Shown here in pieces: positions 12,513-63,805 of a DNA stretch of 64,000 nucleotides. The translations under genes were made by a program, and so were the position numbers. Positions within the stretch are counted from its first letter, which is position 1; each line of letters starts with the position of its first letter. Under the pieces are notes generated by a model. That model searched no databases. It was not told the DNA's origin and saw nothing but the letters and a program-made list of their open reading frames with translations. Source of the stretch: Squalus acanthias (Eukaryota); assembly GCA_030390025.1 (NCBI GenBank), contig CM059432.1, positions 8,060,001 through 8,124,000 of the forward strand, read 5' to 3'.

Positions 12513-12966
12513 AGAACATCAGAACATAAGAAATAGGAGCAGGAGTAGGCCATTCGGCCCTTCGAGTCTGCTCTGCCATTCAATGAGATCATGGCTGATC
12601 TTCGACCTCAACTCCATTCACCGGCCCCATCGCCATATCCCTTGATGCCCTTACTAGTCAGAAATCTATCGACTTCTGTTTTGAATATACCCAATGACTG
12701 AGCCTCCACAGCCCTCTGGGGTAGAGAATTCCAAAGATTCACCACTCTCTGTGTGAAGAAATTTCTTCTCATCTCAGTCCTGAATGGCCGACCCTTTATC
12801 CTGAGGCTGTGGCCCCTGGTTCTAGACTCCCCAGCCAAGGGAAACATTCTCCCAGCATCCACCTTATCAAGCCCTGTAATAATTTTGTATGCTTCAATGA
12901 GATCCCCTCTCATTCTTCTGAATTCAAGAGAATACAGGCCTAGTTTACTCAATCTCTTCTCATACA
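12513..12966 (-). mobile_element. CR1 3' fragment
   Basis: YEKRLSKLGLYSLEFRRMRGDLIE..FFTQRVVNLWNSLP plus 3' UTR and tail. Confidence 0.9.
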
Positions 12967-13024
12967 ACAGAGGAGCAGGGGGGGGGGGGGGGGGGAAGGG
13001 GGGAGAGTGTGGAGGTGGAAGAAG

Positions 13025-13976
13025 GTCGCAGGGGAGTCGGAGATCACGGGGGAGTCGGAGATCACGGGGGAGTCGGAGATCGCGGGGGAGTCGGAGATCG
13101 CGGGGGAGTCGGAGATCGCGGGGGAGTCGGAGATCGCGGGGGAGTCGGAGATCGCGGGGGAGTCGGAGATCACGGGGGAGTCGGAGATCACGGGGGAGTC
13201 GGAGATCACGGGGGAGTCGGAGATCGCGGGGGAGTCGGAGATCGCGGGGGAGTCGGAGATCGCGGGGGAGTCGGAGATCGCGGGGGAGTCGGAGATCGCG
13301 GGGGAGTCGGAGATCGCGGGGGAGTCGGAGATCGCGGGGGAGTCGGAGATCACGGGAGAGTCGGAGATCGCGGGGGAGTCGGAGATCGCGGGGGAGTCGG
13401 AGATCGCGGGGGAGTAGGAGATCGCGGGGGAGTCGGAGATCTCGGGGGAGTCGGAGATCACGGGGGAGTCGGAGATCACGGGGGAGTCGGAGATCACGGG
13501 GGAGTCGGAGATCGCGGGGGAGTCGGAGATCGCGGGGGAGTCGGAGATCGCGGGGGAGTCGGAGATCGCGGGGGTGTCGGAGATCGCGGGAGAGTCGGAG
13601 ATCGCGGGGGAGTCGGAGATCGCGGGGGAGTCGGAGATCGCGGGGGAGTAGGAGATCGCGGGGGAGTCGGAGATCACGGGGGAGTCGGAGATCGCGGGAG
13701 AGTCGGAGATCGCGGGGGAGTCGGAGATCGCGGGGGAGTAGGAGATCGCGGGAGAGTCGGAGATCGCAGGGGAGTCGGAGATCGCGGGGGAGTAGGAGAT
13801 CGCGGGGGAGTCGGAGATCACGGGGGAGTCGGAGATCGCGGGGGAGTCGGAGATCGCAGGGGAGTCGGAGATCGCGGGAGAGTCGGAGATCGCGGGGGAG
13901 TCGGAGATCGCGGGGGAGTAGGAGATCGCGGGGGAGTCGGAGATCGCGGGGGAGTCGGAGATCGCGGGGGAGTCGG
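13025..13976. repeat. 18-bp minisatellite (GGAGTCGGAGATCGCGGG)n, about 53 units
   Basis: Direct inspection; a few variant units (CACGG, GTAGG, GGAGAG). Confidence 0.95.
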
Positions 13977-14462
13977 CCGATCATTGAGGGGAGTCACAGA
14001 GGTTAGCTTGTTGGGCCTGGAGGAAACACTCCTGCTCCTGCTGGCCCACAAGCAGTGCTGTAAGGGCACTTACCCCATGGATCCAGCCCTACTCGCCTCC
14101 TTTTACCTACCGGGTTTCCCGAGGCCTGGGGATCCCGACCAACGTGGATAAAAAAATAAAAATCCTATTAAAACGGAGGCACGCTGCCTCCTTACAGGCT
14201 TTTACCGACTGACCTGCCTCCTGTGAGTGGACCCCAAACCCGCCTGCTCTTGGGGGTTAATGCTGAGTCCAGAGGGTTGAGTGGCAGATAGGCTGAGGAG
14301 GGAGGTGGGTGTCAGTGCCACTGGAACTATATCCCACCATTACTCTCGACCTTCAGGAGAGAAAAAAAGCCTTGCATTTATATAGCGGCTTTCACGACCA
14401 GCGGACTCCCAAAGTGCTTTACAGCCAATGAAGTACTTTTTGAAGTGTAGTCACTGTTGTAA

Positions 14463-15942: not shown

Positions 15943-18037
15943 GGGCCAGAATTTGCTGTCAAAATAAGGGTGAGGCTTCTGGCGCTCGCTGTTATTTATG
16001 GGTAAATGGTACAGCAAGATTCAGGCAAGGGGCAGATGCGCGGTTAAATGTAAATATCCAAATGTTGCAGGCTGAGTTGCACCGCTCCGTTTCACGAAAT
16101 CGGAATCGTGCCCTTAGCCTCACCGTTTTGTTAGGGACTTGCTGTACGGTAACACAGCAGCAGGCCTGGGCTCATGATCCGGGGGCAAGAGTTCAAATTG
16201 GGGAATTTAAATTCAGTTAATTAAATACATCTGGAATTAAAAAGCTAGTATCAGCAATGGTGACCATGAAACTACCAGATTGTCATAAAAACTCACCTGG
16301 TTCACTAATGTCCTTTCATGGAAGGAAATCTGCCGTCCTTACCCGGTCTGGCCTGTATGCCCAGGCCCACAGCAATGTGGTTGACTCTTAACAGCCCTCT
16401 GAAATGGCCTAGCAAGCCGCTCGAGCACAATTAGGGATGGGCAATAAAGGCCGGCCTTGCCAGTGACGCCCACATCCCGTGAACAAATTTAAACAAAAAA
16501 TTTGCCCATTAAACTCGCCACAGAAAGTTAAGCCTTTTCATTACAAACGTAAGTACCCTTTCAACAACGTGATAAGTGCTAATTACTGCCAGTCAGCCTC
16601 TCGAGCACTGAAAATTGACTACTACAAGTGTGGAGTCTCATTCCTTCTGGGTTTGAATTTTTTGGGGGGGGAGATTTTTAAAATGTCATTTTTTAATTTT
16701 TTCTTACTTTTCCCTTCTGTCACTTTTCTGTCTTTCTCTCTTAATCCAATCTTTCTTTCCCTCTCTTTATTTTTCTTTCTGTACCTGATGTGACATTGAA
16801 TTTCACCCGCTTTAACTCACCCTCCTTCTCAGTCCTTCCTGTGCTTATTTCCCAATCCTTCAATCTCATTGGTTAAGGAGTTACACGGCTGGTTGCCCTG
16901 TGAACTCAGGTCCCAGTTGCCCCGTTATCAGCTCGCACTTTCAGCAACTTAGTGGGCAAACGTTTTTGGAGCTGAAGGGTGCAGGAACGGTATATATCAG
17001 GGTGTGGCATATATCAATGATCTAGACTTGAGTATAGGGGGTATGATTAAGAAGTTTACAGATGATACTAAAATCGGCTGTGTGGTTGATACTGAAGAAG
17101 GAAGCTGTAGACTGCAGGAAGATATCAATAAATTGGTCAGGTGGGCAGAACAGTGGCAAATGGAATTCAATCCGGAGAAGTGTGAGGTAATGCATTTGGG
17201 GAGGGCTAACAAGGAAAGGGAATACACATTAAATGGTAGGACACTGAGTAGTGTAGAGGAACAAAGGGACCTTGGGGTGCATGTCCACAGATCCCTGAAG
17301 GTAGCAGGCCAGGTAGATAAGGTGGTTAAGAAGGCATACGGAATGCTTGCCTTTATTAGCCGTGGCATAGAATACAAGATCAGGCGGGTTATGCTTCAAC
17401 TGTATAAAACACTAGTTAGGCCTCAGCTAGAGTACTGCGTGCAGTTCTGGTCACCACATTACAGGAAAGATGTGATTGCACTAGAGAGGGTACAGAGGAG
17501 ATTTACAAGGATGTTGCTGGGAGTAGAGAACCTTAGCTATGAGGAAAGACTGGATAGGCTGGGTCTGTTTTCCTTGGAACAGAGGAGGCCGAGGGGAGAC
17601 CTTATTGAGGTGTATAAAATTATGAGGGGCCTAGATAAAGTGGATAGAAAGGACCTATTTCCCTTAGCAGAAGGGTCAAAAACCAGGGGGCACAGATTTA
17701 AAGTAATTGGTGGGAGGTTTAGAGGGGATTTGAGGGGAAATTTCTTCACCCAGAGGGTTGTGGGGGTCTGGAACTCACTGCCTGAAAGAGTGGTAGAGGC
17801 AGGAAACCTAACCACATTTAAAAAGTACTTGGATGTGCACTTGGGATGCTCTAACCTGCAGGGCTACGGACCAAGAGCTGGGAAGTGGGATTAGGCTGGT
17901 TAGCTCTTTGTTGGCCGGTGCGGACACGATGGGCCGAAATGGCCTCCTTCCGTGCTGTAACTTTTTATGATTCTATGAGCAGGTCTACCAAACAGCAGAA
18001 GCCAATAGATGTCCTGCCACAGCAAAATCAAGGACCA
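15943..18037. mobile_element. Old TIR element (related to 23289-24223) interrupted by a SINE and a CR1
   Basis: Ends GGGCCAGAATTTGCTG / CAGCAAAATCAAGGACC; 16500-16980 aligns by eye with 23710-24175. Confidence 0.55.
17000..17977 (+). mobile_element. CR1 LINE, 5'-truncated, with an open 296-aa ORF2 C-terminus (17004-17894)
   Basis: YINDL..KFTDDTK (catalytic FADD mutated) ..LYKTLVRPQLEYCVQFWSP; close inverted sister of 29378-30350. Confidence 0.95.
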
Positions 18038-18190: not shown

Positions 18191-20013
18191 TGCGGAGATG
18201 CCGGTGTTGGACTGGGGTGGACAAAATTGAGAGGTCGCACAACACCAGGTTATAGTCCAACAGTTTTATTTGAAATCACAAGCTTTCGGAGCTATCGATT
18301 GCTCCTTCCTCAGGTGAAGTAAATTAATACAGAATCGCCAAAGCATATATAGATAGAAAACAAAGCATGTGTACCTTACAATTGCAGACCACTAAATTAA
18401 ATCATCCTGACTATCTGCCGAGGTGTGATAAAGTTAATTAAGTCAGCCAGGAAGGTACCACATCAAAGACATAGCAAGATACAACTGAGACAATGAGGTG
18501 TAGTCGCAGGGGTTCTAACGTGTCAAAAGCTGCCGTCTGTATGTAAAACGAAAAGCTTTCAAATTTTTACTTTTTTACTGGGAAAATTTTTACTTTTTTA
18601 CTGGGAATCACATCTGTGAACAAGCTAACGACGACTCGAGTCCGGATCACGTCATGTATCGTGACATAAACCCAAGATCCCGATTGAGACCGTCTTCATG
18701 AGTGCGGAACTTGGCTATCAGTTTCTGCTCGATGATTTTGCGTTGTCGTGTGTTTCTAAGGTTGCCTTGGAGAACGCTTACCCCGCAGATCCGAGGCTGA
18801 ATGTCCTTGACTGCTGAAGTGTTCCCCGACTGGGAGGTAACAATCCTGCCTGGCGATTGTTGCACGGTGCTCGTTCATACGTTGTCTCAGTGTCTGCATG
18901 GTCTCGCCGATGTACCATGCCGCGGTGCATTCTTTCCTGCAACGTATGAAGTAGACAACGTTGGCCGAGTCACATGAGTATGTACCATGTACCTGGTGGG
19001 TAGTGTCCTCACGTGTGATGGTGGTATCTGTGTTGATGATCTGGCATGTCTTGCAGAGTTTGCCATGGCAGGGTTGTGTGGTGTCGTGGTCGCTGTTATC
19101 CTGAAAGCTGGGTAATTTGCTGCGAACGATGGTACTTCTGAGGTTAGGCGGCTGTTTGAAGGCAAGTAGTGGAGGCGTGGGGATGGTCTTAGCGAGGTGT
19201 TTGTCGTCATCGATGACATGTTGAAGGCTGCGAAGAACATGGCGTAGTTTCTCCGCTCCGGGGAAGTACTGGACGACGTAGGGTACCCTGTTGGTTGTGT
19301 CCCGTGTTTGCCTTCTGAGGAGGTCTATGCGATTTTTCGCTGTGGCCCGTCGGAACTGTCGATCGATGAGTCGAGCGTCATATCCCGTTCTTACGAGGGC
19401 GTTTTTCAGCGTTCGTAGGTGTCCATCGCGTTCCTCCTCGTCTGAGCAGATCCTGTGTATTCGCAGGGCTTGTCCATAGGGGATGGCTTCTTTAACATGG
19501 TTAGGGTGGAAGCTGGAGAAGTGGAGCATCGTGAGGTTGTCCGTGGGCTTGCGGTAGAGTGAAGTGCTGAGGTGTCCGTCTTTGATGGAGATTCGTGTGT
19601 CCAGGAATGAGACCGATTCTGAGGAGTAGTCCATGGTGAGTTTGATGGTGGGATGGAACTTGTTTATGTTATCGTGTAGTCTTTTCAGTGATCCTTCGCC
19701 ATGGGTCCAAAGGAAGAAAATGTCGTCGATGTATCTGGTGTACAGCGTTGGCTGGAGGTCCTGTGCAGCGAAGAAGTCTTGCTCGAACTTGTGCATGAAG
19801 ATGTTGGCGTATTGGGGTGCGAATTTGGTCCCCATGGCTGTTCCGTGTGTTTGGGTAAAAAAATGGTTGTCGAAGGTGAAGACATTGTGGTCAAGGATGA
19901 AGCGGATGAGTTGTAGGATGGCGTCTGGAGGAAGGAGCAATCGATAGCTCCGAAAGCTTGTGATTTCAAATAAAACTGTTGGACTATAACCTGGTGTTGT
20001 GCGACCTCTCAAT
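18191..20013 (-). mobile_element. Penelope-like retroelement, 5'-truncated, with an inverted partial pLTR at its 5' end
   Basis: RT + GIY-YIG ORF; 3' pLTR 18191-18325; inverted pLTR 19928-20016; TSD TTTATAGGAAGGA (18178-18190, 20014-20026). Confidence 0.95.
18647..19927 (-). pseudogene. Penelope reverse transcriptase-GIY-YIG endonuclease (truncated; one frameshift near 18785)
   Basis: QTHGTAMG, YTRYIDD, SLYRKPTD, CxxC, NVVYFIRC..WYIGET; continues in the other frame as VSVLQGN..EQKLI..GLNRD. Confidence 0.92.
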
Positions 20014-20134
20014 TTTATAGGAAGGACACAGGCCTGGAATTTCCTAGCGCCCTGCTCTGCTGGTGTAACTCTGTCCCAAATTCATTCCTGCTATTGGCGT
20101 AGAGGAGGCCTTCTCTTCACCACCACATCTAAAT

Positions 20135-29377: not shown

Positions 29378-31409
29378 CATAGAATCATAGAATCATAGAA
29401 AGTTACAGCACGGAAGGAGGCCATTTCGGCCCATCGTGTCCGCGCCGGCCAACAAAGAGCTAACCAGCCTAATCCCACTTCCCAGCTCTTGGTCCATAGC
29501 CCTGCAGGTTACAGCATCCCAAGTGCACATCCAAGTACTTTTTAAATGTGGTTAGGGTTCCTGCCTCTACCGCCCTTTCAGGCAGTGAGTTCCAGACCCC
29601 CACAACCCTCTGGGTGAAGAAATTTCCCCTCAAATCCCCTCTAAACCTTCCTCCAATTACTTTAAATCTGTGCCCCCTGGTTTTTGACCCCTCTGCTAAG
29701 AGAACTAGGTCCTTTCTATCCACTTTATCTATGCCCCTCATAATTTTATACATCTCAATAAGGTCTCCCCTCAGCCTCCTCTGTTCCAAGGAAAACAGAC
29801 CCAGCCTATTCAGTCTTTCCTCATAGCTAAGATTCTCTACTCCCGGCAACATCCTTGTAAATCTCCTCTGTACCCTCTCTCGTGCAATCACATCTTTCCT
29901 GTAATATCGTGACCAGAACTGCATGCAGTACTCTAGCTGAGGCCTAACTAATGTTTTATACAGTTGAAGCATAACCTCCCTGCTCTTGGATTCTATGCCA
30001 CGGCTAATAAAGGCAAGCATTCCGTATGCCTTCTTAACCACCTTATCTACCTGGCCTGCTACCTTCAGGGATCTGTGGACATGCACTCCAAGGCCCCATT
30101 GTTCCTCTACACTACTCAGTGTCCTACCATTTAATGTGTATTCCCTTTCCTTGTTAGCCCTCCCCAAATGTATTACCTCACACTTCTCCGGATTGAATTC
30201 CATTTGCCACTGTTCTGCCCACCTGACCAATTTATTGATATCTTCCTGCAGTCTACAGCTTCCTTCTTCAGTATCAACCACACAGCCGATTTTAGTATCA
30301 TCTGCAAACTTCTTAATCATACCCCCTATATTCAAGTCAAGATCGTTAATATATACCACAAAAAGCAAAGGACCTAGTACTGAGCCCTGCGGAACCCCAC
30401 TGGAAACAGCCTTCCAGTCACAAAAACACCCATCAACTATTACCCTCTGCTTCCTGTCTCGGAGCCAGTTTTGAATCCAACTTGACACTTTGCCCTGAAT
30501 CCCATGGGCTTTTACCTTTGTGACCAGTCTGCCATGTGGAACCTTATCAAAATCCTTGCTAAAGTCCATATACACTACATCAAATGCACTACCCTCATCT
30601 ACCCTCCTTGTTACCTCCTCAAAAAATTCAATCAAGTTTGTCAGACACGACCTTCCCTTAACAAATCCGTGCTGACTATCCTTGATTAATCCGTGTCTTT
30701 CTAAATGAAGATTTATCCTGTCCTTCAGAATTCTTTCCAATAATTTTCCCACCAACAAGGTTAGGCTGACTGGCCTGTAATTACTCGGTCTATCCTTTTC
30801 TCCCTTTTTAAACAAGGGTACCACATTAGCAGTCCTCCAGTCCTCCGGCACCACACCTGAAGCCAGAGAGGATTAAAAAATGATGGTCAGAGCCTCTGCT
30901 ATTTCCTCTTTTGCTTTGCTTAACAGCCTGGGATACATTTCATCTGGGCCTGGGGATTTATCCACTTTTAAAGCTGCTAAACCCCTTAATGCTTCCTCCC
31001 TCACTATGTTTATTTCATCTAATATTTCACACTCCTCCCCCCGATAGCAATGTCTGCTTCGCCCCTCTCCTTTGTGAAAACAGACGCAAAGTATTCATTA
31101 AGAACCCTACCGACGTCTCCCGCCTCCACACACAGATTACCCTCATGATCTCTAATAGGCCCTACCCTTTCTTTAGTTATCTTCTTACTCTTAATATATT
31201 TATAAAACATCGGGATAGGGTGGGATATGTGTCGGTGCAGGCTCGATGGGCCGAAATGGCCTCTATCTGCACTGTGGGGATTCTGTGATTCTGTGATCTT
31301 TGGGTTTTCCTTGATTTTACTTGCCAAGAATTTTTCATGCTCTCTCTTTGCTTTCCTAATATAATTTTTAATTGCACCCCTGCACTTTCTGTACTCCTCA
31401 GATTGATCG
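29378..31409 (-). mobile_element. CR1 LINE, ~2 kb 5'-truncated copy; 461-aa open RT region (29469-30854); small CR1/HE1-type tail insert at ~31211-31297
   Basis: DWRTANVVPLFKKG, NYRPVSLT, QHGF, YMDFSK.FDKVPH, GVPQGSVLGP, FADD; stop codon and frame breaks upstream; (CATAGAAT)n tail. Confidence 0.97.
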
Positions 31410-33622: not shown

Positions 33623-33771
33623 GTAGGAAAGGTTATTGAGGTCGTCACTGAAAATCCATACAGGGTGTCTTTCACGCAAATACCTAAAAATAGACTCGGG
33701 ACAGTTTCACAGGTTGGGTTTCAATTGCTTAAAGCGATCTTGGGCATTTTTTGTGAAAAATTAACAGTCAT

Positions 33772-34424
33772 TGACGTAAGAAAACTATGAGGCACTTGGT
33801 CTAAGCGTTAAACAAAGCTTTAATCAACTGTTTTTCAACATGGAGGTCTAGTTGTGTCATAGAAACATAGAAACATAGAATCTAGGAGCAGGAGTAGGCC
33901 ATTCGGCCCGTCGAGCCTGCTCCACCATTCAATACGATCATGGCTGATCATCCAAATCCAGTACCCTGTCCCTGCTTTAATCCCCACAGTACACATATCC
34001 CACCCTACCCCCGTAATCCCACGTATTTAATTCCCCCTAACATATCCCATCCTATCCCCATAACCCCACATGTTTAATCCCCCCCTAACACTAAGGGTCA
34101 ATTTATCATAGCCAAATCAACCTAACCCGCACATTTTTGGACTGTGGGAGGAAACCGGAGCACCCGGAGGAAACCCACGCAGACACGGGGAGAATGTGCA
34201 AACTCCACACAGACAGTCACCCGAGGTCAGATTCGAACCCGGGTCTCTGGCGCTGTGAGGCACCAGTGCTAACCACTATACCACCGTGCTGCCCTTCACT
34301 AGTTCCTGTTGAGGAATGTCCTAAGCAAGCTGGGCCCATGCCCGAGTATTTATGCTCTCCCTGGACAGCGCCACCAGCAGGCCGCCCAGTATTACTTCAT
34401 ACATGAATGACAAGATTCATGTCA
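33772..34424 (-). mobile_element. ~220-bp solo-LTR-like element (copy 1), interrupted by an HE1 SINE
   Basis: TGAC...GTCA ends; GTCAT on both sides; homologous to 62574-62800. Confidence 0.8.
33858..34293 (-). mobile_element. HE1-like V-SINE, full length
   Basis: tRNA-like head GGGCAGCACGGTGGTATAGTGGTTAGC..GGTTCGAATC, V-domain GTGGGTTTCCTCCGGGTGCTCCGGTTTCCTCCCACAGTCCAAAAA, CR1-type tail (CTATGTTT)n. Confidence 0.9.
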
Positions 34425-34833
34425 GTCATAAATGTAAAATAGTATTTATTCTGTGGATGCATTTGATGCCGGATGGGTGAGAAATAATAGATATGCGTTA
34501 ATAATAGCATCCCTATCTTTAATCAACGTCTCATTGCTTAGCATTCCTTACCCTTCACCCTTAGCTCGAGAAATTGGATGGGGCCTAAGCCCCCAACATG
34601 GCGGAAGGGAAGCGCAGGCTCATTACGAGCTGGTAGTGCTCAGATGTTAGGCGAAACAGGCGTGAGTCCCATCGCAAATTCAAATAAGGGGCCTACTGCC
34701 TGTTTGAGGCCCTCTCTGCAATATTGGGTTGCCCTGAGACACTGGGCCGGCTGTGATTAGGAAAAGCAGGTCTACATGCAGCCTAGCAGGCGGTCCTTAA
34801 AGGGACCGCTGCCGGGCGCCACCAACAATGTAA

Positions 34834-36232: not shown

Positions 36233-36294
36233 GAAGTGTTTAAAATATAATCCTCCCAGATCAGGCTGCTACACTGCCTGATCGGCGCCAACCG

Positions 36295-39200
36295 TTCCCC
36301 TCCCGATCTCACCCCATCCAACCCGATCTCCCCCTCTCCCGATCGCTCCCTCTCCCGATCGCTCCCTCTCCCAATCACCCCCTCTCCCGATCGCTCCCTC
36401 TCCCAATCACCCCCTCTCCCGATCACTCCCTCTCCCGACCGTCGCCACCCACCCTCCCCCGGTTTCCCCTACCCCAATCATGGCATCGAATCCCTCCGCC
36501 CCCCGATCGGCGTTGCCAACCCCCTCTGTCATTCAGGTCACTACCCTGACCGATCACCACCGACCGCTCCCTCTTCCGATCGCTCCCTCTCCCGATCGCT
36601 CCCTCTCCCAATCACCCCCTCTCCCGATCGCTCCCTCTCCCGATCGCTCCCTCTCCTGATCACTCCCTCTCCCAATCACCCCCTCTCCCAATCACCCCCT
36701 CTCCCAATCACCCCCTCTCCCAAGCACCCCCTCTCCCGATCACCCCCTCTCCCGATTGCTCCCTCCCCCGATCGCTCCCTCTCCCAATCACCCCCTCTCC
36801 CAATCACCCCCTCTCCCAATCACCCCCTCTCCCAATCATCCCCTCTCCCGATCGCTCCCTCTCCCAATCACCCCCTCTCCCGATCGCTCCCTCTCCCGAT
36901 CGCTCCCTCTCCCGATCGCTCACTCTCTCCCAATCACCCCCTCTCCCAATCACCCCCTCTCCCAATCGCTCCCTCTCCCGATCACCCCCTCTCCCACTCA
37001 CCCCCTCTCCCAATCACCCCCTCTCCTGATCACCCCCTCTCCCGATCGCTCCCTCTCCCAATCGCCCCCTCTCCCGATCGCTCACTCTCCCAATCACCCC
37101 CTCTCCCAATCACCCCCTCTCCCAATCGCTCCCTCTCCCAATCACCCCCTCTCCCGATAGTCTCCTCTCCCAATCACTCCCTCTCCCGATCGCTCACTCT
37201 CTCCCAATCACCCCCTCTCCCGATCACTCCCTCTCCCGATCACCCCCTCTCCCGATCACTCCCTCTCCCAATCACTCCCTCTCCCGATCACTCCCTCTCC
37301 CAATCACCCCCTCTCCCGATCACCCCCTCTCCCGATCACTCCCTCTCCCAATCACTCCCTCTCCCAATCACCCCCTCTCCCGATCACCCCCTCTCCCGAT
37401 CACCCCCTCTCCCGATCACTCCCTCTCCCAATCACTCCCTCTCCCGATCACTCCCTCTCCCAATCACCCCCTCTCCCGATCACCCCCTCTCCCGATCACT
37501 CCCTCTCCCAATCACTCCCTCTCCCGATCACTCCCTCTCCCAATCACTCCCTCTCCCGATCACTCCCTCTCCCAATCACTCCCTCTCCCGATCGCTCCCT
37601 CTCCCAATCACCCCCTCTCCCGATCGCTCCCTCTCCCAATCACCCCCTCTCCCGATTGCTCCCTCTCCCAATCACCCCCTCTCCCGATCGCTCACTCTCT
37701 CCCAATCACCCCCTCTCCTGATCGCCCCCTCTCCTGATCGCTCCCCTGTCCCGATCGCTCCCTCTCCCAATCACCCCCTCTCCCGATCGCTCCCTCTCTC
37801 CCAATCACGCTCCCTCTCCCAATCACCCCCTCTCCCGATCGCTCCCTCTCCCAATCACCCCCTCTCCCGATCGCTCACTCTCTCCCAATCACCCCCTCTC
37901 CTGATTGCCCCCTCTCCTGATCGCTCCCCTGTCCCGATCGCTCCCTCTCCCAATCACCCCCTCTCCCGATCGCTCCCTCTCTCCCAATCACGCTCCCTCT
38001 CCCAATCACTCCCTCTCCCGATCGCTCCCTCTCTCCCAATCACGCTCCCTCTCCCAATCACCCCCTCTCCCGATCACTCCCTCTCCCAATCACCCCCTCT
38101 CCCGATCACTCCCTCTCCCAATCACTCCCTCTCCCGATCGCTCCCTCTCCCAATCACCCCCTCTCCCGATCGCTCCCTCTCTCCCAATCACGCTCCCTCT
38201 CCCAATCACCCCCTCTCCCGATCACTCCCTCTCCCAATCACCCCCCTCTCCCGATCGCTCCCTCTCCCAATCACCCCCTCTCCCAATCACGCTCCCTCTC
38301 CCGATCGCTCCCTCTCCTGATCACTCCCTCTCCCAATCACCCCCTCTCCCAATCACCCCCTCTCCCAATCACCCCCTCTCCCAAGCACCCCCTCTCCCGA
38401 TCACCCCCTCTCCCGATTGCTCCCTCCCCCGATCGCTCCCTCTCCCAATCACCCCCTCTCCCAATCACCCCCTCTCCCAATCACCCCCTCTCCCAATCAC
38501 CCCCTCTCCCAATCACCCCCTCTCCCAATCATCCCCTCTCCCGATCGCTCCCTCTCCCAATCACCCCCTCTCCCGATCGCTCCCTCTCCCGATCACCCCC
38601 TCTCCCGATCGCTCCCTCTCCCGATCGCTCCCTCTCCCGATCACCCCCTCTCCCGATCGCTCCCTCTCCCGATCGCTCACTCTCTCCCAATCACCCCCTC
38701 TCCCAATCACCCCCTCTCCCAATCGCTCCCTCTCCCGATCACCCCCTCTCCCACTCACCCCCTCTCCCAATCACCCCCTCTCCCAATCACCCCCTCTCCC
38801 AATCGCTCCCTCTCCCGATCACCCCCTCTCCCACTCACCCCCTCTCCCAATCACCCCCTCTCCTGATCACCCCCTCTCCCGATCGCTCCCTCTCCCAATC
38901 GCCCCCTCTCCCGATCGCTCACTCTCCCAATCACCCCCTCTCCCAATCACCCCCTCTCCCAATCGCTCCCTCTCCCAATCACCCCCTCTCCCGATAGTCT
39001 CCTCTCCCAATCACTCCCTCTCCCGATCGCTCACTCTCTCCCAATCACCCCCTCTCCCGATCACCCCCTCTCCCGATCACCCCCTCTCCCGATCACTCCC
39101 TCTCCCGATCACCCCCTCTCCCGATCACCCCCTCTCCCGATCACTCCCTCTCCCAATCACTCCCTCTCCCGATCACTCCCTCTCCCAATCACTCCCTCTC

Positions 39201-39833
39201 CCGATCACTCCCTCTCCCAATCACCCCCTCTCCCGATCACTCCCTCTCCCAATCACTCCCTCTCCCGATCGCTCCCTCTCCCAATCACCCCCTCTCCCGA
39301 TCGCTCCCTCTCTCCCAATCACGCTCCCTCTCCCAATCACCCCCTCTCCCGATCGCTCCCTCTCCCAATCACCCCCTCTCCCGATTGCTCCCTCTCCCAA
39401 TCACCCCCTCTCCCGATCGCTCACTCTCTCCCAATCACCCCCTCTCCTGATTGCCCCCTCTCCTGATCGCTCCCCTGTCCCGATCGCTCCCCCTCCCAAT
39501 CGCTCCCTCTCCCGATCGCTCACTCTCTCCCAATCACCCCCTCTCCCGATCGCTCCCTCTCCCGATCGCTCCCTCTCCCGATCGCTCCCTCTCCCGATCG
39601 CTCCCCCTCCCAATCACCCCCTCTCCCGATCGCTCACTCTCTCCCAATCACCCCCTCTCCTGATTGCCCCCTCTCCCGATCGCTCCCTCTCTCCCAATCA
39701 CGCTCTCTCTCCCAATCACCCCCTCTCCTGATTGCCCCCTCTCCCGATCGCTCCCTCTCTCCCAATCACCCCCTCTCCCAATCACCCCCTCTCCTGATTG
39801 CCCCCTCTCCCGATCGCTCCCCCTCCCAATCGC
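36295..39833. repeat. 16-bp minisatellite (CGATCGCTCCCTCTCC / CAATCACCCCCTCTCC)n, ~3.5 kb, with higher-order duplication
   Basis: Direct inspection; rare variant units recur in the same order. Confidence 0.95.
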
Positions 39834-62186: not shown

Positions 62187-62291
62187 GAGAGTGCATGGTA
62201 TTTTTTCAAACTTTGGGGTTAGCATAATGGAGCACAACTCTCTGTTCTCGTCCTGTGCGTTCCTTTGTTCCTGTGTATAGTGCTTTATCAG

Positions 62292-62965
62292 CTGTGTCAG
62301 CCGTGGCTCAGTGGGTAGCACTCTCGTCTCTGCATCAGAAGGTTGTGGGTTTAAGTCCCACTCCAGAGACTTGAGCACAAAAATCTAGGGAGTGCTGAGG
62401 GAGCGCTGTCCTTTCGGATGAGACGTTAAACTGAGGTCCCATCTGCCCTCTCAGGTGGACGTGAAAGATCCTATGGCAATCTTCGAAGAAGAGCAAGGGA
62501 GTTCTCCCCGGTGTCCTGCCCAATATATATACCTCAATCAGCATAACTAAAACAAAATAGATTATCTGGTCATTGACGTAAGAAAACTACTAGGTGCTTG
62601 GTCTAAGCATTAAACAAAGCTTTAATCAACTGTTTTACAACATGGAGGTCTAGTTGTGTCCTTCACTAGTTCCTGTTAAGAATGTCCTGCGCAAGCTGGG
62701 CCCGTGCCCGAGTATTTATACTCTCCCTGGACAGCGCCACCCGCAGGCCACTCAGTATTATTTCATAAGTCTTTCTTTCATGAATGACAGATTCATGTCA
62801 GTCATTATCACATTGCTGTTTGTGGGGCCTTGCTGTGTGCGAATTGGCTGCCGCGTTTCCTACATTACAGCAGTGACTACACTTGAAAAGTACTTCATTG
62901 GCTGTGAAAATGTTTTGGGACGTCCTGAGGGGGTGAAAGGTGCTATAGAGATGCAAGTACTTTAT
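62292..62965 (+). mobile_element. DeuSINE interrupted by the GTCAT-flanked element
   Basis: tRNA head GCCGTGGCTCAGTGGGTAGC; resumes at GTCATTATCACATTGCTG. Confidence 0.9.
62574..62800 (-). mobile_element. 227-bp solo-LTR-like element (copy 2)
   Basis: TGAC...GTCA ends; GTCAT duplicated (62569-62573, 62801-62805); minus strand has a CTCF-like motif, TATAAATA and ATTAAA. Confidence 0.85.
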
Positions 62966-63805
62966 TATCTACGCCTTTTATCTTTAGCCAGGATTTAATT
63001 ATTCTTAATTTAGTTTTCCACATTGACCTAGTTCTGCCCTTACAGATCAGTTCAGGTATTCCAAAGCCCGTTCCTAGTAATCACCTGGGCAAGGGCTCTG
63101 TCACAGCTCGTTATGTACTTTGTGGCCGCGACATACACTTAACCCACGTGCCACATCCACTCTTGTTTCCAACTGCTTTAGTTGTAATGATGGACAGCGC
63201 AACCTTTGCAGACCCTGTTCAGAACGCTGGTAATTATTTGATCCCTCGTGTTTGTATCAACAAAATGAACAATGTACACCGAACTGGGCTGATAAGGTCA
63301 CTGCAAGATCTCAACTTCGCTGGCTCTTATTGGAAAAGGGTAACGAAATGTTACAGAAATAGCAAGTTAATCAGAATGCATGTTGCATACCGATGGTTTT
63401 TTTTTTCCGGAAGATAGGCAGCATTTCCTGTCAGGGCTGCAAGTATTCCCTGTGAAACTGTCCATGTCCATCTGTAAGAACACTGGGGTCAATATCCTGA
63501 CAAATATGTGTCAAGCAACCAGACAAATTCTTAACTCCTTCACCTTAACTCCTCACTAAGGAACCGTCTGGGGTTTACCGCCCAGCCTATGTCTAGGAGC
63601 GAATGACGCCTCCATTTGACTCGCCAAACTGTTTGACATCACCCATGGAATTTCAATCACGGACTGGATTTGAGTTCGCCTTCCCAACCCTTAAATAGGA
63701 CATGCAGAAGCTGCGGAGTGAACGAATTAACCCGTTTTTGTCAAATAATCAACAAATGAATCAGACAGCAAGTCATGCACTAATAATTTAGTGACTTTAA
63801 AATCT

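Follow-up and report, generated by a model that had tools for sequence, protein, structure and literature searches.

In the 64-kb stretch of DNA analysed here (the window), a tRNA-headed SINE, which we take to be SacSINE1/DeuSINE-like, is interrupted by an element that begins with TGAC, ends with GTCA and has the pentamer GTCAT on both sides (Table 1). The window contains two copies of this element and no more. The second (the 33k copy) has the same orientation as the first (the 62k copy), lies 28.8 kb from it, has the same TGAC and GTCA ends with GTCAT outside each of them, and is interrupted by a SINE with a tRNA-like head and a short-repeat tail that is presumably HE1-like. An earlier note on this DNA had described both copies, the 33k copy as a diverged one, together with the GTCAT sequences beside them, and we confirmed this description in the letters themselves. 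The 62k and 33k copies are identical at 201 of 216 aligned bases (93%) and differ at the other 15, and an 11-nt stretch of the 62k copy is absent from the 33k copy. The possibility that the two copies are the LTRs of a single 29-kb element was rejected, because each has a duplication of its own and the 62k copy lies inside one SINE.

Elsewhere in the window, we observed 11 matches to the left part of the host SINE and 13 to its right part; tRNA-headed Deu SINEs are described as abundant in the genomes of cartilaginous fish (PMC5499810). A single GTCAT, corresponding to the empty site, was present at six of the 11 host-SINE positions examined, the others reading ATCAT, GTTAT or, in three cases, being diverged or off register. 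A search of the window for the empty-site sequence, GGTCATTATCAC, found it three times. The single GTCAT at 6/11 positions indicates that the pentamer was duplicated on insertion, as the earlier note had proposed.

Table 1. Positions of the two element copies, their flanking duplications, their sequence motifs and the associated SINEs
Feature	Position	Strand	Remark
Host tRNA-headed SINE, interrupted by the 62k element	62293..62966	+	
Left GTCAT of the 62k element	62569..62573	+	left copy of 5-bp target duplication
TG..CA element, read as a solo LTR (62k copy)	62574..62800	-	227 bp; strand assigned from the order of TATA box and poly(A) signal
ATTAAA, putative poly(A) signal	62621..62626	-	
TATAAA, putative promoter box	62715..62720	-	
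CTCF-like 15-mer	62733..62747	-	2 mismatches to consensus; not above chance
Right GTCAT of the 62k element	62801..62805	+	right copy of 5-bp target duplication
Left GTCAT of the 33k copy	33767..33771	+	
Second copy of the element (33k copy)	33772..34424	-	split into 33772-33858 and about 34294-34424
tRNA-headed SINE with short-repeat tail, inside the 33k copy	about 33859..34293	-	
Right GTCAT of the 33k copy	34425..34429	+	

Structure of the element and its surroundings

On the minus strand of the 62k element, a putative promoter box (TATAAA) is followed by a putative poly(A) signal (ATTAAA). This is the order found in LTRs, as the earlier note had stated, with the two hexamers alone being weak evidence. 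The ATTAAA lies 47 nt before the minus-strand 3' end of the 62k element and is present in both copies. At the place of the TATA box the 33k copy has CATAAA, and position 62720 is absent from the variable family positions listed for the public-run contigs described below. A CTCF-like site claimed for the same strand did not hold up: it has two mismatches to the CTCF consensus, and at that stringency the window contains five matches, with 8.75 expected by chance.

Helenus-type TRIMs have a tRNA-like LTR. We rejected this class for the element because there is no GTTCRA (B box) on either strand and Rfam gave no match at E up to 1 for positions 62280-63000, a scan that also missed the tRNA-like head of the host SINE and thus tests the point weakly. 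The right end of the element (62779-62800) contains nested short inverted repeats, one pair of 5 bp within the final 16 bases and one of 7 bp at 62779-62797. The pentamer also occurs on the opposite strand inside the element, as ATGAC at 62784-62788, and the 33k copy has one additional base in the region matching 62779-62800.

Neither an internal region nor a primer site, a polypurine tract or paired flanking copies were seen in the window. Among the 111 window open reading frames of at least 95 aa (low-complexity frames excluded), Pfam matched no integrase, gag or recombinase; it matched five reverse-transcriptase fragments, which by eye we take to be CR1-, L2- and Penelope-like. A pair of CR1-like reverse-transcriptase frames, closely related and 467 and 313 aa long, lies at 29472-30872 (minus strand) and 16953-17891 (plus strand), and a 441-aa frame at 18759-20081 (minus strand), presumably Penelope-like, combines a reverse-transcriptase fragment with a GIY-YIG-like end. 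The window also contains two long tandem arrays: a C-rich 16-bp array at about 36250-39730, with more than 150 overlapping copies and strong GC skew, and a homogeneous 18-bp array at about 12600-14150, with inner copies 94-98% identical and open frames on both strands.

Exact-pattern scans found no homologous locus in viral contigs, in prokaryote genomes or in two metagenome scans. One metagenome contig (L001) matched the TATA region of the element over 25 bases at its positions 458-482, within an unrelated animal repeat. We attribute this match to chance, because only these 25 bases are identical, the flanks are unrelated and the contig has no other match to the window. The same contig has a 444-aa open frame on its minus strand (1273-2607) that appears glycosyltransferase-like by eye. 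In the literature searched we found neither the element nor an LTR with a GTCAT target, and the element may carry a catalogued name in Repbase or Dfam. The element is of a known kind, either new or simply unnamed.

Copies of the element in public sequencing runs

A run search with a stretch of the element listed 22 public runs, 20 of which contain the stretch, from 10 studies and eight coded organisms. The small shares of X13 and X14 and two zero rows were left out of the run evidence. We aligned four of the 22 runs (X1, X9, X17 and X19), whose species may differ from that of the window, to positions 62549-62825, and the contigs fitting this region numbered 2,220, 3,736, 5,703 and 413 in the four runs. 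The element family is abundant and common to several related species. One run has at least 123 distinct left-junction contigs, a count to be read with contig depth giving no true copy number.

If GTCAT were a fixed target, other copies would be expected to align out to 62569 and 62805; if it were the core of a recombinase crossover, alignment would be expected to continue past the terminus on at least one side. We observed neither. In X17, long and mixed flanks start at 62574 (123 contigs, agreement 0.35) and at 62800 (106 contigs, agreement 0.34), and X19 behaves in the same way (115 contigs, agreement 0.35, and 87 contigs, agreement 0.36, respectively). In X9, flanks diverge at these two positions in five and five contigs. 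A minor row of loose ends lies at 62572 (21 contigs in X17, two in X9), and X1, with three pieces only, has no terminal row among the rows displayed. There is no row at 62569 or 62805 among the 24 of 347 loose-end rows displayed for the four runs.

Individual contigs gave the same picture. Among the 32 of 12,125 pieces listed, those that enter the left flank stop at 62573, 62573, 62575 and 62574, and those that enter the right flank stop at 62803, 62800, 62800 and 62800. GTCAT is present in none of these eight pieces and in none of the seven terminal consensus rows displayed. In X19, two further contigs have their start or end precisely at 62574 and 62800, in the manner of branch points. Thus, the loose ends and the contigs that stop there fix the ends of the family at 62574 and 62800. 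As no contig among the pieces listed covers a copy from end to end, a left flank cannot be matched with its right one, and the 5-bp length of the duplication rests on the two window copies together with a 5-letter zone of biased flanks.

Most copies of the family in related genomes most likely sit at other, loosely similar sites. Of the target-specific solo LTR that the earlier note had proposed, the solo LTR stands, as does a target bias that GTCAT fits; a strict GTCAT target does not, given that the flanks diverge at the termini.

The part of the element at 62756-62778 varies in length across the family. X1 and X9 have an 8-base deletion within it, the letters after 62771 differ in three runs, and X19 has a short variant in which 62756 is joined to the last dozen bases of the element. 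This variation suggests that there are several subfamilies.

A weak bias in the letters adjoining the ends

We examined the five letters adjoining the element ends in the five large rows, which read GAGAC, CTCAC, ACCAC, CTCTC and GTGAT. The last of these follows the terminal GTCA in a variant row of X19 (37 contigs) and is not censored by the reference, because it is clipped upstream of the element end. G or C accounts for 14 of the 25 letters next to the ends and for 12 of the 113 letters beyond them (Fisher p 3e-6, with the outer letters counted visually). The large rows fit an RYXRY pattern at 16 of 20 places (p 0.006), and adding the two 5-contig rows of X9 gives 18 of 28 (p 0.09). These p-values are optimistic, since orthologous sites may recur in the rows of X17 and X19 and the rows are in part censored. 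In the flank consensus, five letters are weakly biased towards (G/C)T(C/G)A(C/T), a pattern that GTCAT fits at all five places. Random 5-bp duplications, the outcome that the earlier note had named as speaking against its proposal, are therefore largely what the family has, with a weak bias in place of pure randomness.

A bias of this kind resembles that of known integrases. The LTRs of Pao/BEL elements have TG..CA ends, as here. Pao/BEL solo LTRs (roo, 3S18 and Max-element) share with the element a 5-bp duplication and a weak, low-information palindromic motif, their targets being given as CTNAC, ATNAT and AANTT (PMC3276498); they differ in belonging to another host phylum, and the motif of the element seems richer in G/C. 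Four retroviruses with 5-bp duplications (HIV-1, EIAV and SIV, together with Rev-A) are described as preferring RYXRY across the pentamer, with G/C favoured and T/A disfavoured at the outer places (Serrao et al., PMC4422553). GTCAT and the uncensored GTGAT both fit this preference. The likeness to retroviruses concerns how the integrase behaves and no more: at 227 bp the repeat is short, and we see no tie to a retrovirus. By contrast, the gypsy and Idefix clades of Drosophila are described with 4-bp duplications and high-information targets (TATA/TRYA and ATAT; PMC3276498), whereas the element here has 5 bp and an agreement of about 0.35-0.4. LTR elements with high-information target motifs, such as the earlier note had proposed here, are thus already known from these clades. 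No internal region accompanies the element in the sequence examined, and it could belong to any of the superfamilies BEL, Gypsy, Copia and ERV.

Origin of the two copies

We consider it probable that the two copies arose independently as solo LTRs, from one abundant family of integrase-type LTR elements in a cartilaginous fish, and that their duplications coincide by chance. An integrase would have inserted the TG..CA ends at a cut staggered by 5 bp and so produced the target duplication that is seen at both sites; recombination between LTRs, as established for such elements, would then have deleted the interior, so that a single 227-bp LTR stayed behind between the duplicated pentamers. The SINE inserted later into the 33k copy. 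The integrase would have a weak, roughly palindromic preference of the RYXRY kind, (G/C)T(C/G)A(C/T), with GTCAT as one favoured pentamer that two independent insertions would have hit by chance.

Several properties of the element are those of a solo LTR. Its termini are TG..CA; the duplication has a fixed length within the usual 4-6 bp (5 bp at both window copies); and the duplicated sequence varies and is weakly biased towards a palindrome (the four large terminal rows agree at 0.34-0.36). These ends and this duplication with its integrase-like bias, together with a terminal inverted repeat of no more than 4 bp and a TATA box preceding ATTAAA, agree with a minus-strand solo LTR. LTR status rests on this anatomy, as no internal region was seen and neither integrase nor gag is among the 111 open reading frames.

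The probability that two random 5-mers of the window are equal is 0.0013, and that of a match between the two duplications is 0.0013-0.004 (with the top letters at 0.35-0.5). Against the chance reading, a match at 0.13-0.4% remains rare for a single pair. For this family, the expected number of coincident windows per genome is 0.2-17, assuming 5,000-20,000 copies and 3-5 Gb. A shared duplicated pentamer within one 64-kb window is expected occasionally in a repeat-rich genome, and it calls for a family-wide check of the flanks. As it stands, the landing bias is the usual integrase bias, in one of many repeat families, and matters little.

Alternatively, the element could belong to the small, non-autonomous DNA transposons, its TG..CA ends being very short and its 5-bp duplication weakly biased; GTCAT would again be shared by chance. 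We regard this as unlikely. In its favour, no internal region was found in the contigs or among the window open reading frames, and TGAC..GTCA is a perfect 4-bp inverted repeat (5/6 when extended). However, the terminal inverted repeats of MITEs and TIR DNA transposons usually have ten or more bases and the one here is no longer than 4 bp, and the TATA and ATTAAA hexamers stand in LTR order. Transib elements, for their part, end in CAC..GTG. Transib families are described with 5-bp duplications, but at CCANTGG-like targets (PMC3276498). KolobokP provides a case of solo direct repeats derived from a DNA transposon, but Kolobok ends are given as RR..YY, and those of the KolobokP solo repeats are other than TGAC..GTCA (PMC9587614).

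It is distinctly unlikely that both window copies derive from a minority subfamily that strongly prefers GTCAT, with most of the family being less strict in its targets. Such a subfamily would account for GTCAT in two of two window copies (prior 0.0013), the pentamer fits the biased consensus throughout, and undisplayed rows leave it some room: GTCAT has an upper bound of about 13% of left and 17% of right X17 junctions if hidden rows have no more than 21 contigs, and the eight listed pieces alone bound its share only below 31%. A linear depth model of the right end, with implied GTCAT shares of 0.14, 0.79, 0.35 and 0.43, is compatible with the subfamily but uninformative, since under either model short, branching contigs extend the depth beyond the element end. 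By contrast, the two window copies fall on different sides at eight of the nine variable family positions compared (chosen for high share from 31 rows), which argues against one special subfamily by sequence. The lack of rows at 62569 and 62805 among those displayed for the four runs, and the number of chance coincidences expected per genome at the assumed copy numbers, also weigh against it.

A related proposal, that a subset (roughly a sixth or less) concealed within this loosely targeting LTR family has an integrase strongly preferring GTCAT, a target that repeats the GTCA at the element's own end, we hold to be decidedly improbable. If true, this subset would show, in a vertebrate, how target specificity can emerge inside a single LTR family. 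A GTCAT-specific subfamily, if one exists, would offer a natural pair of loose and specific integrases for mapping the determinants of target choice.

Local templated repair could in principle have pasted one copy from the other, with GTCAT as microhomology at both ends, and the shared orientation, the spacing of the two copies and the common pentamer agree with this. It is very improbable: the copies differ by 15 of 216 bases and by the 11-nt indel, and their different family variants at eight of nine positions argue against local copying and point to separate source elements. Integration of a circle by a tyrosine recombinase, with GTCAT as the core of the crossover (as in Crypton, DIRS or Ngaro elements), the other reading offered by the earlier note, is extremely improbable: the left junction of the 62k element does read GTCA-T-TGAC, a small palindrome, and Cryptons (CryptonS and CryptonF) are described with short terminal direct repeats of 4-6 bp (PMC3212892), but the CryptonS repeat is given as mostly constant (TATGG) whereas the pentamer here varies across copies, GTCAT should travel with every copy whereas alignment is lost at both TG and CA in most contigs, no recombinase was matched among the 111 window open reading frames, and DIRS1 elements are described as being without duplication (PMC5941688).

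The SINE in the 33k copy is not the only insertion near that point of the element. In four X17 contigs, the same short-repeat SINE/LINE tail enters the element at 62657, a few bases from the place of the SINE in the 33k copy, and the region near 62657/33859 may be a recurrent insertion spot.
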